Of a stretch of DNA of 31,201 nucleotides, positions 18,186 through 31,201 are shown one piece after another. The position numbers and the translations under genes are program-made. How positions within the stretch are numbered: the stretch's first letter is position 1; the number at the start of each line of letters is the position of its first letter. The notes under the pieces were generated by a model that saw only the letters and a list, made by a program, of their open reading frames with translations, ran no database searches and had not been told where the DNA came from. This DNA is from a bacterium (GTDB lineage Bacteria; Patescibacteriota; JACMRA01), in NCBI GenBank assembly GCA_043764135.1, contig JAYUKV010000131.1:1-31201 (forward strand), in the 5' to 3' direction.

Positions 18186-18274
18186 ATTCAAACTAAAAGT
18201 GAGACTTTGAAATAGTTACAAATAAATTCAAGGACTAATTTAAAATTTTACATTTGCCAATTAAATAAGTTATT

Positions 18275-18437
18275 TATACTCAAACCACACCAACCCCCAT
18301 CTAATATAGATAGAAAAAATTGGATATAATAGTGACTATTTCAAGCTTCTTATGCTTTGCATAAAAGATTGAGATAGTAGCTATTAGATACTATTTTGGC
18401 ATTTAGATAAGGTGGAGGTTGGTATGGTTTGAGTATA
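18275..18437. repeat. 163-nt fold-back element (candidate MITE or 6S-like ncRNA)
   Basis: Arms TATACTCAAACCACACCAACC (18275-18295) / GGTTGGTATGGTTTGAGTATA (18417-18437) match 20/21; ATCTAA/TTAGAT extension; inner hairpin 18336-18377. Confidence 0.8.
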
Positions 18438-26261: not shown

Positions 26262-26336
26262 GACTTCAGTACTATTGACTAATATTTAAGATTTATATAA
26301 TAGTATTGTTACTCTTAAACATTTGGCGAATATTCA

Positions 26337-28115
26337 ATGAACACTCAATTGGCAATTCCAACTACCACCAAATCTCATCTTGAACAGTTATCTGACTTTA
26401 TACAATCTTCTAGGACTTGGCCCAAATTAGTAAATTGGAATTCTCTTGTTCTAGAGCATCCATTAACTGTAAATCACTGGTTAATGGTAAAAGGTTTAAT
26501 AGATTCTTACTACAATTATGGTCAGGAATGTATTAGATTTACAACCGACCAAGAACCAGGCTATCTTGATAACTCTCTATTTACATTTAGGAATTATCTA
26601 GATCATTTTTGGGAAAGTATTGTACTTGATGAATATTGCTGTTATGCACATAACCTTATTCTTGAGTTTATTGCATACATCAATTGTAGAATGAATGGAG
26701 TAATGGGAGAGTATTTAGAATACGCAACCAATCTAGCAAAATTAAATCAAGTTAATACAGAAAGCTGGAATATTAATCAATACTTTGATTACTATATCAA
26801 GCAGTTTAGCCCTCTTGGAGGTCTTTCACAATCTAGGTTTGGATACATACTTGAATTCTATCCGTTTAATTGTATAAGAGAAGTCTGCAAACCAAAACAT
26901 TATGCAGCTTGCCAAAAACTCTTTATAATTCAGGAAGTTGTTCAATTAATTCATAAACTGCATTTACGAAATGACTCAGAAGTTAAGATAAATGTTGCAG
27001 GTTTTGATTTTTTATCAAAACAGGACTTAACGCCTGTGATGAACAAAAGAATCAACAAAACTTCATCATTAGATTTTCTAAATTATACTTATGATTTTGA
27101 AAAAATTGATGAAACTTGGATAAAAGAAAGTTTTAATATGGAGCTTGTTGAAGCGCTGTTTACTCAAAACGAGTTTGCCTTGTTGCTAGAAAATCCATTT
27201 GAAACTTATTTTGAAAATCTCAGGTATTTTCTCAATGATGTATTACCTGAAATCGCAAACAATAGGGTGATATTACCCTTTGTTAAAAAAGCAAATGAAA
27301 GTTTCAAATTAACACAAAAAACAAGATTAACTTCTTCAAAAGGTCAAGCACCCTACCTTGAATATTTTGAAGAAAAATTGGTTTTTGGTTATTTATTAAG
27401 CGATGATTGTAATCAGGAACAAGCTTCACATATCCTTCGCCTATTGGCATTAAGTAAGAACAAAGGTTTTGATGAAGTTGTAACTTTGTTGTATTTAGAT
27501 CAAACCAAATCAAGCAAACTTACAAAACAATCGGTTCGTTATCTGTATGAACTTTACAAGGAGCAGTATGATGAATTGTTTGAACTTAATGTGGACAAAT
27601 CTGATTCTGTTAGAACTGATTCACTTGAGAACGATTTACATGAGAGTAACACAGATTATCAGGGAGATGATAAAGACAGTGAAGAAGCGATTGTATTTAC
27701 ATCCAAGACAGATAACAGAATTGTTCGTAAGACACCGTGGAGTGGAATTATAGATCAAGGGATTTTTGAATTTAAGTCCAATTATATCAATTTTGACGCA
27801 TTCAAATACTCTGCAGTAAATAGATCCTTTAAAGAAGTCGAAAGAATACTAAAAATCGCAATCTCAATTCATCGAGAAAACGATTCAATTCTAGATGCTT
27901 TTAAAGCTATCTTAATAAATCCAGATTTATATGGTATAGGTGCTTCTTTGCTTAAGAATAAGGTAACACCATTCCATGAAAACACTTCAAGAATCAGAGC
28001 GGGTGATCTAGAAATCAAACTGAGTGAAGGATATAGATTATTTCTGAGGAACTGCGATGGTGATGTTAGAAAAGTCGAAATTGTTGAACTGTCCAATCCC
28101 AAATACCACCACTAG
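26337..28115 (+). CDS. Hypothetical protein, 592 aa, with a possible C-terminal RelE/ParE-like domain
   Basis: Long ORF; acidic linker (DSVRTDSLENDL...DDKDSEE) then C-terminal GDLEIKLSEGYRLFLR...VEIVEL...YHH. ORF is secure; the domain call is tentative. Confidence 0.7.
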   Translation: MNTQLAIPTTTKSHLEQLSDFIQSSRTWPKLVNWNSLVLEHPLTVNHWLMVKGLIDSYYNYGQECIRFTTDQEPGYLDNSLFTFRNYLDHFWESIVLDEYCCYAHNLILEFIAYINCRMNGVMGEYLEYATNLAKLNQVNTESWNINQYFDYYIKQFSPLGGLSQSRFGYILEFYPFNCIREVCKPKHYAACQKLFIIQEVVQLIHKLHLRNDSEVKINVAGFDFLSKQDLTPVMNKRINKTSSLDFLNYTYDFEKIDETWIKESFNMELVEALFTQNEFALLLENPFETYFENLRYFLNDVLPEIANNRVILPFVKKANESFKLTQKTRLTSSKGQAPYLEYFEEKLVFGYLLSDDCNQEQASHILRLLALSKNKGFDEVVTLLYLDQTKSSKLTKQSVRYLYELYKEQYDELFELNVDKSDSVRTDSLENDLHESNTDYQGDDKDSEEAIVFTSKTDNRIVRKTPWSGIIDQGIFEFKSNYINFDAFKYSAVNRSFKEVERILKIAISIHRENDSILDAFKAILINPDLYGIGASLLKNKVTPFHENTSRIRAGDLEIKLSEGYRLFLRNCDGDVRKVEIVELSNPKYHH

Positions 28116-28139
28116 TCTTAGGTTTTATAAACACACACA

Positions 28140-28172
28140 TTTACCACTTATTTATAGTGGTGAATTTTTTTT
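28140..28172 (+). terminator. Intrinsic terminator
   Basis: TTTACCACT/AGTGGTGAA stem followed by T8. Confidence 0.8.
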
Positions 28173-28185
28173 GTTTTGTGTTTAT

Positions 28186-28348
28186 TAGACTTCCCCACAT
28201 TTAAAATTTTTAATTAGAAATTAGAAAAATATTTAGAATTTTATGATTTTTGTTTTCCTCTTATACCTATGTATAAAGGAAAACAAAAATTGTAAAATTA
28301 TAGATATTTAGCAATTTTTAATAAAATTATTAAATGTGGGGGAGTCTA
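28186..28348 (+). repeat. 163-nt near-perfect fold-back hairpin upstream of the methyltransferase
   Basis: By hand, 73 bp paired and 17 nt unpaired, with a CTAT loop at 28267-28270; outer arms TAGACTTCCCCACATTTAA/TTAAATGTGGGGGAGTCTA. Confidence 0.92.
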
Positions 28349-28386
28349 TTGACTTGGATTTAATAATACACAACAATTTATTGTAT

Positions 28387-29103
28387 ATGGACTTCTCACA
28401 AGTCAACACACAATTCTACCAAGATATTTTTAAAATTTGGAATAACGAACCTGATTATTATTGGGACGGTTTCTGGTATCTATACAGCTATTTTGATCAA
28501 TGTTTAGAAGGAATTGACTCACCTAGGGTCTTGGATATTGGGAGTGCTAATGGAAGATTCTTTAATTTTCTTGAATTCTGCTGGCCAGAAAAGACGTTTA
28601 TAAAAGTAGGGATTGATTTTGTTGATTTTAAGATGGTGAATAACTATGATTTTATAAAATGTGATATTTCTAAAGAACAGTTCTTAGATCTTGATTTGGG
28701 GAAGTTTGATCTAATTACAGCCTTTGGTGTATTCCATCATATACAGTCACAACAAGTAAGAAATACAATCACTAACAAGATCAGTTCAATGCTATCTGAT
28801 AATGGTGTATTTGTATTTACTAGGTGGAATTTTCTTTTACTAAATAGACTAAGAAAACACATCCTCACACCTGAGCAAATTCCTAATTTTGATGCTAGTA
28901 GTCTAGAATTGGGTGACTATTTTTTAAAATGGGATAAAGGGCAATACTCTATTAGATATGCCAATTTTATGGATATATTCCAAATCGAGCAAATGTTATA
29001 TAAATCTAATTTGAAATGTCTTAATTCATTCAATGCAGACGATAAAACTGAAAACAGGAATTCATACTTCATATGTAATTTGAAAGCAAGGATATATAGC
29101 TAA
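28387..29103 (+). CDS. Class I SAM-dependent methyltransferase (likely start ATG 28387)
   Basis: VLDIGSANG motif I, GIDF, FDLITAFGVFHHI motif IV, LSDNGVF. The ORF-track start at 28336 lies inside the hairpin arm and upstream of a TTGACT -35 box at 28349. Confidence 0.88.
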   Translation: MDFSQVNTQFYQDIFKIWNNEPDYYWDGFWYLYSYFDQCLEGIDSPRVLDIGSANGRFFNFLEFCWPEKTFIKVGIDFVDFKMVNNYDFIKCDISKEQFLDLDLGKFDLITAFGVFHHIQSQQVRNTITNKISSMLSDNGVFVFTRWNFLLLNRLRKHILTPEQIPNFDASSLELGDYFLKWDKGQYSIRYANFMDIFQIEQMLYKSNLKCLNSFNADDKTENRNSYFICNLKARIYS

Positions 29104-29261
29104 TTACTACTAAAAAAAATTACATTTATAACTACAAATATCCCAATATTTATCACTTCTTATTTTACTTTAACCATTGGGTTAAGAGTAAAATAACGAG
29201 AAATAAATATTGGGATATTTTATTCATTCTAAATGTACATTTTTAGTAGTAATTAGCTATA
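29095..29261. repeat. 167-nt fold-back hairpin overlapping the methyltransferase stop codon
   Basis: Perfect 22-bp outer arms TATAGCTAATTACTACTAAAAA/TTTTTAGTAGTAATTAGCTATA; perfect 18-bp AAATATCCCAATATTTAT/ATAAATATTGGGATATTT; 67 bp in total; ATTG loop. Confidence 0.92.
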
Positions 29262-29337
29262 ACTATGATTTTATCTTGCTTATAATTTAATTAGTAAAGC
29301 TATCTAAAGGAATTAGTGACAAACGATTAAATTTCTC

Positions 29338-29366
29338 TTGCTAATTTATAAAATTATTATTATAAA
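29338..29366 (+). promoter_or_regulatory. Sigma70-type promoter
   Basis: TTGCTA-N17-TATAAA directly upstream of ORF 29372. Confidence 0.5.
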
Positions 29367-29371
29367 TATCT

Positions 29372-29677
29372 ATGTTAGAATTGCAGGGAAAGTATATGGC
29401 TTTTAAAAAACTTTTCGACACCCAATCTGTCGAAGATATTTATTACAAAACTACCATAATGTGCTCCCATGAAAAGCTTAACTGCCTGAGTTTTTTGATC
29501 AAGTTTTACTTTAAGAGGTTATCAATTTACACCTCTACATGTTTCGACGACGATAGCTATCTAAAAGCTACAATACAATCTCAACAAAACCAAAGTAATA
29601 TTGATAAAGACCTTAAGTTATGGCTAACACGATTATTAGTTATAGATTTATACTATAACAAGACTACATCAAATTAA
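29372..29677 (+). CDS. Hypothetical protein, 93-101 aa
   Basis: ATG-led ORF (alternative ATG 29396) behind a plausible promoter. Confidence 0.6.
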   Translation: MLELQGKYMAFKKLFDTQSVEDIYYKTTIMCSHEKLNCLSFLIKFYFKRLSIYTSTCFDDDSYLKATIQSQQNQSNIDKDLKLWLTRLLVIDLYYNKTTSN

Positions 29678-29785
29678 ATATGTAGTTTATTTTTTTATAA
29701 TTTGACTTTAATTCTCGTTTATGTTAGGAATTATATAGACCTAATATCGATTACTTATTCACTTATCTAATCATCGGAGAAATGA

Positions 29786-30883
29786 ATGTCGAATTTCAAA
29801 AAAAAGCATACATCAACCCAGTTTGGGCAACCACAACCTGTTGTTCGTAGAACTCAACCACCACAACAACCCGTTACCGATACTCAACAATACTCTCAAA
29901 CCGTCCAACCCACTATTACCACCCCTCCTTCAAACCCATCAGCTGCACCTCGAGTTGTTACCAACTTTCCTGCGCCTGGGCTTGCTGTAACAAAACCATC
30001 AAGAAAAGCTAGAATTAGCCTAAAAGCAGTAGGTGCTTTACTATTCTTGGGTACTGTTTCAATTGGAGCTGTGGCTATTGGATCTCCTAAAACTGTATAT
30101 GAAGTCAGGGCCGCACTAAGCAGTACTGATTCTCAATGCCAAAATGCAGATGGAAAGTTCCACAAGAACCTAACTGCAACATTGAGCAAAGGAATGTTTG
30201 GAGTTCCCCAACTTTCCATTTGTATTAACGGGCTTGTAGTGTCTCCCGACACCAAGCTACGAGTTCAAAATATTCCCGCAGGCGATTATTTACTTTACAG
30301 TGCAGCTCCGCGGCAAAATACACAGGTTGCAGCTAAGGACGTTGTAACTGCTCAAGTTACATACAAAGAGCAAGTTGTTCCTGTTAAAGATAACAAATTT
30401 GTTATCAACAACAAGGAATATTCCATTCAAACAGGTAGTAACAAGGTTAACATTGAGGGCACTGAAGCTACAGTTCAAACTGTTGATTCGTATACTGTCC
30501 AAAACGGAGTAAATTATCCTGTTACAAAGTTCGACCAAGGATACACTGCTAGTCTACCAGTAAAATGGGGATATGTTTTTGGGTATGTTCGTGATGATGG
30601 AACGGTTGTACGCGACCTAAAATCAGTCATTTCCCAGATCGAAGCAGGTAAAACCCTTGAAGAGCTTGGACTCAAAAGCGATCAATTCTTGACAATTGTT
30701 CCAAGTCCAAAATCCACATCTGCTACTGACCTTTCTGACCGCAATCTGGTCCAGGTATATCCCGGTGGTGACACTGACAAATACATTCTAGGAGCAAAGG
30801 ACGATAAAGGCAAACCCTTACCGGAAAAAGATGCAGCGAAGATCCTCAACGGTGTTAAATTTACAGTCCATGACTTAAAATAA
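29786..30883 (+). CDS. Single-pass membrane protein: Q/P/T-rich N-terminal tail, TM, about 265-aa predicted extracellular domain
   Basis: GGAG SD; low-complexity QPQPVVRRTQPPQQP..., RKARI followed by a hydrophobic helix; beta-rich C-terminal part. Confidence 0.85.
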   Translation: MSNFKKKHTSTQFGQPQPVVRRTQPPQQPVTDTQQYSQTVQPTITTPPSNPSAAPRVVTNFPAPGLAVTKPSRKARISLKAVGALLFLGTVSIGAVAIGSPKTVYEVRAALSSTDSQCQNADGKFHKNLTATLSKGMFGVPQLSICINGLVVSPDTKLRVQNIPAGDYLLYSAAPRQNTQVAAKDVVTAQVTYKEQVVPVKDNKFVINNKEYSIQTGSNKVNIEGTEATVQTVDSYTVQNGVNYPVTKFDQGYTASLPVKWGYVFGYVRDDGTVVRDLKSVISQIEAGKTLEELGLKSDQFLTIVPSPKSTSATDLSDRNLVQVYPGGDTDKYILGAKDDKGKPLPEKDAAKILNGVKFTVHDLK

Positions 30884-30911
30884 ATAACGCCTGAAAAAAT
30901 TTAATACTTAA

Positions 30912-30944
30912 ATAACACTTGCTTAGTCAAGTGTTATATTTTTT
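30912..30944 (+). terminator. Intrinsic terminator
   Basis: ATAACACTTG/CAAGTGTTAT 10-bp stem followed by ATTTTTT. Confidence 0.8.
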
Positions 30945-31201
30945 GGTTTATTTTTTGGTTATTAAGATATCAATAGAGATAGTATTCAAAGTTTTGGAAT
31001 ACGAATCAAAACATTACTTCGTATAACCAAAAGAATATCAAATTAGAATATTTATTGTTGTTCCTAATAATATTTTGAAAAGTATTATTATGAATTACAA
31101 TATAATTATAGCCTATTCACCTTTTAATTGTACAAAATAATCGAATAAAATTTATCTAGATATTGATTCTGTTATTTATCTCTTTACCCAATGGTAAAAG
31201 A

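Follow-up and report, generated by a model that had tools for sequence, protein, structure and literature searches.

What is a hairpin of 163 nt, paired over almost its entire length, doing between two genes of the same orientation, and is it a structured RNA maintained by the host or a mobile element that happens to lie there? The question arises at positions 28186-28348 of the window, a stretch of 31,201 nt that represents one whole contig of a 1.39-Mb assembly (156 contigs, ~31% G+C, ~85% complete); relatives of the same phylum have complete genomes of ~0.8-1.2 Mb. The genes of the window are bacterial and include a leucyl-tRNA synthetase (LeuRS) with an editing domain, RecJ, a PilB-type ATPase and Dus, and many further open reading frames are without a Pfam match. 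The hairpin is flanked by an orphan ORF of 592 aa and a gene for a SAM-dependent methyltransferase, both on the + strand. A first-pass annotation, made from the letters alone, had placed it between a terminator and a promoter, and this setting was confirmed: a terminator-like hairpin (28139-28165) followed by a T run precedes it, and a promoter-like TTGACT-17-AACAAT follows at 28349-28377. For the methyltransferase, support was found for a start at ATG 28387, with the upstream GTG 28336, located inside the right arm of the hairpin, being spurious; homologues measure 232-250 aa, and the ATG also matches the gene calls in two further assemblies, L050 and L051. These two were considered as independent strains and rejected as such, as they derive from the same strain (100% identity over 5.8 kb) and carry an identical methyltransferase.

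The minimum-energy RNA fold of 28186-28348 on the + strand is a single hairpin of 74 pairs, in which 148 of the 163 nt are paired. The hairpin of the first-pass annotation is thus recovered, with a count differing slightly from the 146 paired nucleotides given there. Its folding energy is -72.0 kcal/mol (z = -15.1 against dinucleotide shuffles), and the - strand folds more weakly, with -56.3 kcal/mol (z = -10.6), an RNA advantage of 15.7 kcal/mol for the + strand. Calculated for DNA, the energies amount to -46.3 (+) and -39.7 kcal/mol (-), so that the + strand is favoured in both chemistries. When the left arm is aligned strand-neutrally to the reverse-complemented right arm, the two differ by five G-T and no A-C pairs, five transversion mismatches and three one-base indels. 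The five G-T pairs (28192/28342, 28217/28318, 28233/28303, 28244/28292 and 28245/28291) occupy in the fold exactly the coordinates at which all wobbles had been claimed to be G-T on the + strand. A G-A mismatch (28236/28300) and discrete bulges (28211-12, 28260 and 28329) are likewise present as described, together with a small internal loop (28223 and 28225-26 versus 28310-11) that the earlier description had left out. The palindrome at 28187-28347 exceeds chance by far. Covariance models of Rfam, run over the whole window, gave no match at the gathering score.

The element proper begins with AGACTTCCCC at 28187 and finishes with GGGGGAGTCT at 28347, so that its ends read AGAC...GTCT. Its terminal inverted repeats are AGACTTCCCCACATTTAA... 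and ...TTAAATGTGGGGGAGTCT, and the pairing continues from them over the whole element. Outside these ends, ATT at 28184-86 and at 28348-50 forms a direct and not an inverted repeat; the length of this target duplication is ambiguous: 3 bp if taken as ATT, and 2 bp if taken, one base further in, as TA. Stop codons in all six frames of the 161-bp element define it as non-coding, and no promoter-like site was detected inside it. We consider, with a probability of roughly 0.87, that 28187-28347 is a MITE which inserted into the spacer between the terminator and the -35 box, duplicated the 3-bp ATT and was moved in trans. In the proposed course of events, the element would have entered downstream of the terminator that closes the preceding gene and upstream of the -35 box that serves the methyltransferase gene, with ATT being duplicated on insertion, and the mobilisation of this non-coding sequence would be catalysed by a DDE transposase encoded elsewhere. 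The coordinates of the features are compiled in Table 1.

Table 1 Features at and around the hairpin, and hairpins of the same genome referred to in the text (positions refer to the window unless a contig is named)
Feature	Position	Strand	Basis or remark
Intrinsic-terminator-like hairpin with T run	28139..28173	+	ends the upstream 592-aa ORF (26337-28115)
Left target-site duplication (putative), ATT	28184..28186	.	direct repeat; T-T mismatch 28185/28349 in the arm alignment
MITE body (putative), 161 bp, AGACTTCCCCACA...TGTGGGGGAGTCT	28187..28347	+	palindromic over full length, 20% G+C
Left arm, with derived bases, e.g. G at 28217	28187..28266	+	arm alignment; partial copies on C94, C38 and C60
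Apical loop CTAT	28267..28270	+	minimum-energy fold
Right arm, the arm type resembled by all partial copies in the genome	28271..28347	+	BLAST
Right target-site duplication (putative), ATT	28348..28350	.	its TT is the start of the TTGACT -35 box
Promoter-like TTGACT-17-AACAAT of the methyltransferase gene	28349..28377	+	box also in the X1 contig and in the 79% relative
SAM-dependent methyltransferase gene	28387..29103	+	Pfam Methyltransf_23 and related families
Example copies of families A/B and D	C13:18782-18903, C57:4071-4193, C94:2532-2656, C60:4038-4162		
Hairpins with one-sided wobble	this element 5:0; C5 5:0; C29 0:5; C99:7721 6:0; C126:8226 5:1		

The insertion is polymorphic. Contigs of four public metagenome runs were compared with positions 26300-31201, and a contig of 862 nt from run X1 represents a closely related strain: the 794 nt that it shares with the upstream gene contain 19 differences (~97.6% identity). 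This contig joins position 28174 to position 28347 and skips the hairpin, with 18 other letters in between; its empty site reads ...TTTTTT ATT GACTTGG and contains one ATT only. The spacer to the left of the site differs by these 18 letters, so the empty site is not letter-perfect. In run X2 the site is filled, with a single difference over 28287-28433. A contig from run X3 matches 28259-28347 with two differences and stops exactly on the last base of the element, and the 62 nt that follow do not resemble the window; it probably represents a copy of the element elsewhere, the alternative being that it stems from this locus and its flank has diverged strongly. The joint in X1 and the end of the match in X3 both support the right boundary of the element. 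A more distant relative, with 79% identity in the methyltransferase, has this gene together with its TTGACT box and lacks the hairpin, and the empty state is therefore regarded as ancestral. The X1 contig continues alongside the window up to 29092 and is unlike it thereafter, which is consistent with the absence in that strain of a second hairpin of 167 nt that overlaps the methyltransferase stop codon in the window (29095-29261).

The family of this element is represented in the assembly by one full copy and two or three arm fragments, a count from which copies may be missing since the assembly breaks at repeats. The fragments, identified by BLAST at C94:2702-2746 (93% identity), C38:13958-13988 (94%) and C60:3852-3882 (90%), are located beside fragments of other families. 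The region C94:2700-2900 was considered as a longer, full copy and discarded: it does not fold (z = -1.1), and only ~50 nt of one arm are related. A BLAST search with the element against 40 relatives yielded AT-rich noise only. Its terminus pattern, with three mismatches allowed, had no match in 26 other genomes of the order, and scans of public metagenome and genome contigs with exact patterns returned chance matches within coding sequence only.

A genome-wide inverted-repeat scan placed the element in a larger context. It detected over 30 long hairpins (110-260 nt) that fall into about ten sequence families; the hairpin-element families of the 1.39-Mb genome, about ten in number, measure 110-170 bp. 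Two further hairpins of the window are located at 18273-18437 and at 29095-29261. Matching 3-bp flanks are also seen in sister families. In family A/B (AGACCTC...), matching flanks of ATT, AAT or TTT border five of six full copies, and in family C (GAACCTG...) all three copies are flanked by TAA or TAT, which are read as 3-bp target duplications because an inverted reading was excluded. One insertion is nested in another at C51:8304-8511; there, a hairpin of family H carries in its apical loop a 122-bp hairpin of family A. The stems of sister families have been maintained by two-sided changes that preserve Watson-Crick pairs: they affect 16 of 58 pairs between A and B and 8 of 61 pairs in family D, and reach as far as pair 56 from the end. 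Family H is also represented at the right end of the window, where positions 31106-31201 are a truncated hairpin (TATAGCCTATTCACC...) of a kind that terminates at least nine contigs; a complete copy of ~167 nt is found at L050:5720-5890, in another assembly of the same strain. At the start of contig C117, a near-perfect palindrome of 208 nt with 97 pairs (C117:1-208) is probably an assembly fold-back artefact and not a biological hairpin.

Insertion sequences are abundant in the same genome. About eight repeat types make up the ends of nearly all 156 contigs, accounting for 30, 28, 23, 17, 16, 14, 10 and 9 ends, respectively; a self-megablast thus indicates a genome saturated with insertion sequences, the interiors of which are unassembled. 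The first 90 nt of the window are themselves an insertion sequence end (TATAGCTAACCCATAACACAACTGGACA...) common to 17 contig ends, and a related end, TATAGCTAACTCATAGCTCAACTGTACA, closes 16 further contigs; the two are probably the opposite ends of a single high-copy insertion sequence.

Candidates for the mobilising enzyme were sought among these insertion sequences. A complete one of ~900 bp (C117:573-1475) has a TAT/TAT duplication and the ends GAACCTGTTTAATTAATC, and MITE family C has the same 18-bp ends. Its transposase of 240 aa matches DDE_Tnp_1 (70.9 bits), DUF4096 and DDE_Tnp_4, on the basis of which it is assigned to the IS5 family. Judged from the shared ends, family C derives from this IS5-family element. 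An ORF for an rve-type (IS481/IS3-like) transposase adjoins it at 1555-2586. For family B, an insertion sequence end at C105:9553-10030, AGACCTCTTTCCTAATTCC, is identical over 19 nt to the family terminus; behind it lies an HTH_Tnp_4 ORF that is cut off by the contig end, and matching right ends are located at C133:1-98 and C150:1-98. As the insertion sequences that share the ends of families B and C are of this kind, the element at 28187-28347 would likewise be served by an IS5 / PIF-Harbinger-like transposase that produces 3-bp duplications. An insertion sequence end of the form AGACT(T/C)CCCCACA, as expected for the present family, was not found in the assembly, in which most insertion sequence interiors are unassembled. 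DDE_3 (the IS630 type) was not found in the assembly either. A family D-type insertion sequence end (C90:1-146) was without match in 300 genomes of the phylum, and its continuation was not present in the assembly. Transposases of a different class are encoded as well. Y1_Tnp homologues occur at C110:291-700 and C83:1456-2200, both broken by stops or frameshifts. The latter belongs to an IS605-type unit (C83:91-2200) with an intact TnpB of 436 aa (91-1401) and a frameshifted Y1 TnpA. At C110:1-700, a Y1 TnpA with a stop is accompanied by a TnpB N-terminus that is interrupted by another high-copy repeat.

The one-sided distribution of the wobble pairs was the observation from which the first-pass annotation had inferred that selection, rather than neutral decay of an inverted duplication, had shaped the hairpin. 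Taken alone, the 5:0 split of this element corresponds to a two-sided binomial p = 0.0625. In strand-neutral arm alignments of hairpins from this genome, however, the well-paired ones with at least five transition mismatches are all one-sided (Table 1). At the level of family consensus sequences, the independent informative families show ratios of 5:0 (this family), 0:5 (F), 6:1 (H) and 2:0 (E), families H and I having been counted once because they are related. So few minority events would arise by chance with a probability of 6e-4 for the four families and 0.007 without this element, the informative families having been picked after the data were seen; over 19 families without selection, the test for heterogeneity gives values between p = 0.016 (chi-square form) and p = 0.09. 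Transitions private to single copies are distributed differently, with 9:11 in F, 8:3 in H, 5:3 in E, 22:18 in A/B, 3:6 in C and 5:7 in D; those toward the favoured strand sum to 24:15 (one-sided p = 0.10). Relative to the flanking genes, the wobble-favoured strand across families is sense in 12 cases and antisense in 17 (p = 0.46). A mutational origin of the wobbles was considered and rejected, as the favoured strand tracks neither local GC/AT skew nor the direction of the flanking genes. Compared by eye with the arm fragments, the G at 28342 and the G at 28217 are polarised as A-to-G changes on the + strand.

Since the bias resides in sequence shared by the family and the private changes are near-symmetric, the 5:0 bias is inherited from the master sequence of the family and did not evolve at 28186-28348. 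The conclusion of the first-pass annotation therefore survives in part: with the bias recurring in three other independent families and the stems of sister families kept by two-sided compensatory changes, a passively decaying duplication is a poor description of the hairpin. Its other half, that a folded + strand RNA is under selection at this locus, is not supported: the insertion is absent from the ~97.6% identical strain and from the distant relative, it occupies a gap that follows a terminator and precedes the next promoter and contains no promoter-like site itself, and it belongs to a set of families in which the favoured strand is sense in 12 cases and antisense in 17 and private transitions are near-symmetric. 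If the bias is selected at all, selection acts on the element, as single-stranded DNA or as its own RNA, and not on a host transcript.

The alternatives to a MITE differ in how they deal with these observations. A host-selected structured RNA on the + strand, such as a 3'-UTR stabiliser, a leader element or a small RNA whose G-U pairs are kept for folding, would agree with the 15.7 kcal/mol by which the + strand RNA folds better, with the occurrence of all five transition mismatches as G-U on that strand and with the + orientation of both flanking genes. It is nevertheless very unlikely at a site where the ~97.6% strain and the 79% relative, despite having retained the two genes or the promoter, lack the hairpin altogether; the sequence follows a terminator, precedes a promoter, has no internal promoter-like site and matches nothing in Rfam, and the 12 sense to 17 antisense cases in the other families, along with their roughly symmetric private transitions, are not what such an RNA predicts. 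The one-sided wobble is also what would be expected of a single-stranded DNA substrate, and the genome encodes Y1_Tnp homologues (C110 and C83) and a TnpB (C83), by which a REPIN or an IS200/IS605-derived element that a Y1 (HUH) transposase would mobilise in folded, single-stranded form comes into consideration. Y1 (IS200/IS605) transposition is not known to make a target duplication. The direct duplication at the present site argues against it, the ends are true inverted repeats instead of distinct left- and right-end hairpins, a GTAG or CGTC head is absent, both Y1 genes are broken and of IS605 type, and the ends of sister families recur in DDE insertion sequences; we regard an origin of this type as no more probable than the host RNA.

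Two further readings concern a local duplication and a recombination site. A non-mobile local inverted duplication that decays neutrally, its 5:0 split having arisen by chance, is compatible with the p value of that split alone and with the single full copy assembled. It has to be set against arm fragments of 90-94% identity on three other contigs, an indel polymorphism with precise edges and a direct repeat, the agreement in size, ends and duplications with other hairpin families, and the recurrence of the bias in families F, H and E (p = 0.007 without this element), and appears marginally less probable still. The least likely explanation is an attC-like site, with the hairpins at 28186 and 29095 bounding a mobile methyltransferase cassette in the manner of an integron. 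The methyltransferase gene is indeed located between two hairpins of similar size, with the surrounding genes in one orientation. Core sites of attC have the form RYYYAAC...GTTRRRY, to which the ends ATTAGAC...GTCTATT do not conform; moreover, in X1 the methyltransferase gene has the upstream neighbour known from the window but lacks the first hairpin, the X1 contig departs from the window at 29092, i.e. at the start of the second hairpin, and the sequences of the two hairpins show no relationship, the first having a target duplication of its own. A retron or an origin of single-stranded DNA replication was rejected: the neighbouring ORFs gave no match to a reverse transcriptase or a Rep protein, and the hairpins form many dispersed families. 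The MITE interpretation has a weakness of its own, as plain cut-and-paste transposition of double-stranded DNA leaves the 5:0 wobble bias unexplained.

Bacterial MITEs have been described as elements of <200 bp with terminal inverted repeats, TA at the termini, a high AT content, a target duplication and a long stem-loop (PMC2229807; PMC10969869). The element at 28187-28347 fits this definition in all of these respects, i.e. size, inverted repeats, TA termini, AT richness, duplication and stem-loop. Like the Correia/NEMIS elements of Neisseria, ERIC/IRU of enterobacteria and RUP of S. pneumoniae, it is a non-coding, intergenic sequence of 100-200 bp that forms a hairpin over its whole length; in contrast to these, its host is Patescibacteria-like, sequence similarity to them is lacking and its duplication is probably the 3-bp ATT instead of the TA of the Correia/RUP type. 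Duplications of 3 bp and AT-rich composition are known from Tourist-type PIF/Harbinger MITEs and from IS5-family MITEs. Read as ATT, the AT-only duplication of the element is compatible with the Tourist/IS5 type; ends shared with an insertion sequence were observed only for families B and C. Its own ends match those of family A/B over about the first 7 nt and those of family D at ~12 of 15 positions by eye, and unlike the Tourist/IS5-type MITEs its interior is a long palindrome unrelated to any insertion sequence interior. In the Bacillus cereus group, bcr1 is a mobile repeat of ~155 bp with short direct repeats, the fold of which is kept by compensatory changes (PMC3184786). Comparable two-sided changes were seen in the sister families A/B and D. 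Transcription of bcr1 is established, and its duplication measures 5 bp. REPINs with their RAYT and IS200/IS605-derived palindromes share with the element the nature of hairpin-forming dispersed repeats, whose single-stranded form would account for a strand-specific fold, but they are not known to duplicate their target and they rely on a Y1 HUH enzyme, whereas the element has a direct repeat, inverted ends and DDE relatives. REPs are described as carrying a GTAG or CGTC head (PMC3733652).

In our case, the hairpin is an ordinary mobile element, probably with little or no function for the host at this position, and should be annotated as a mobile-element insertion and not as an RNA gene. The wider interest of the locus is the one-sided wobble at the level of families. 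We tentatively suggest that the long-hairpin MITE families of this genome, the present one included, may be selected to fold as one particular single strand, an idea that is possible rather than probable. It is based on the one-sided shared wobbles in four independent families, the symmetry of private changes and the compensatory changes deep in the stems, together with a favoured strand that is independent of host gene direction and GC skew. The selected form would most likely be single-stranded DNA that folds back at a replication fork and brings both ends close to each other; an RNA derived from the element is the alternative.

For the organism, insertions that are polymorphic between ~98% identical strains imply that the elements are active now or were so recently, and insertion sequences together with about ten MITE families constitute an unusually heavy load for a genome of ~1.4 Mb that probably belongs to the Patescibacteria. 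For this class of elements, if single-strand selection is true, DDE-type MITEs with target duplications would pass through, or need, a strand-specific single-stranded form. Here the wobble could be divided into a biased component common to the family and an unbiased component private to single copies, which offers a concrete way to ask whether the hairpins of MITEs play a part as single strands in transposition.
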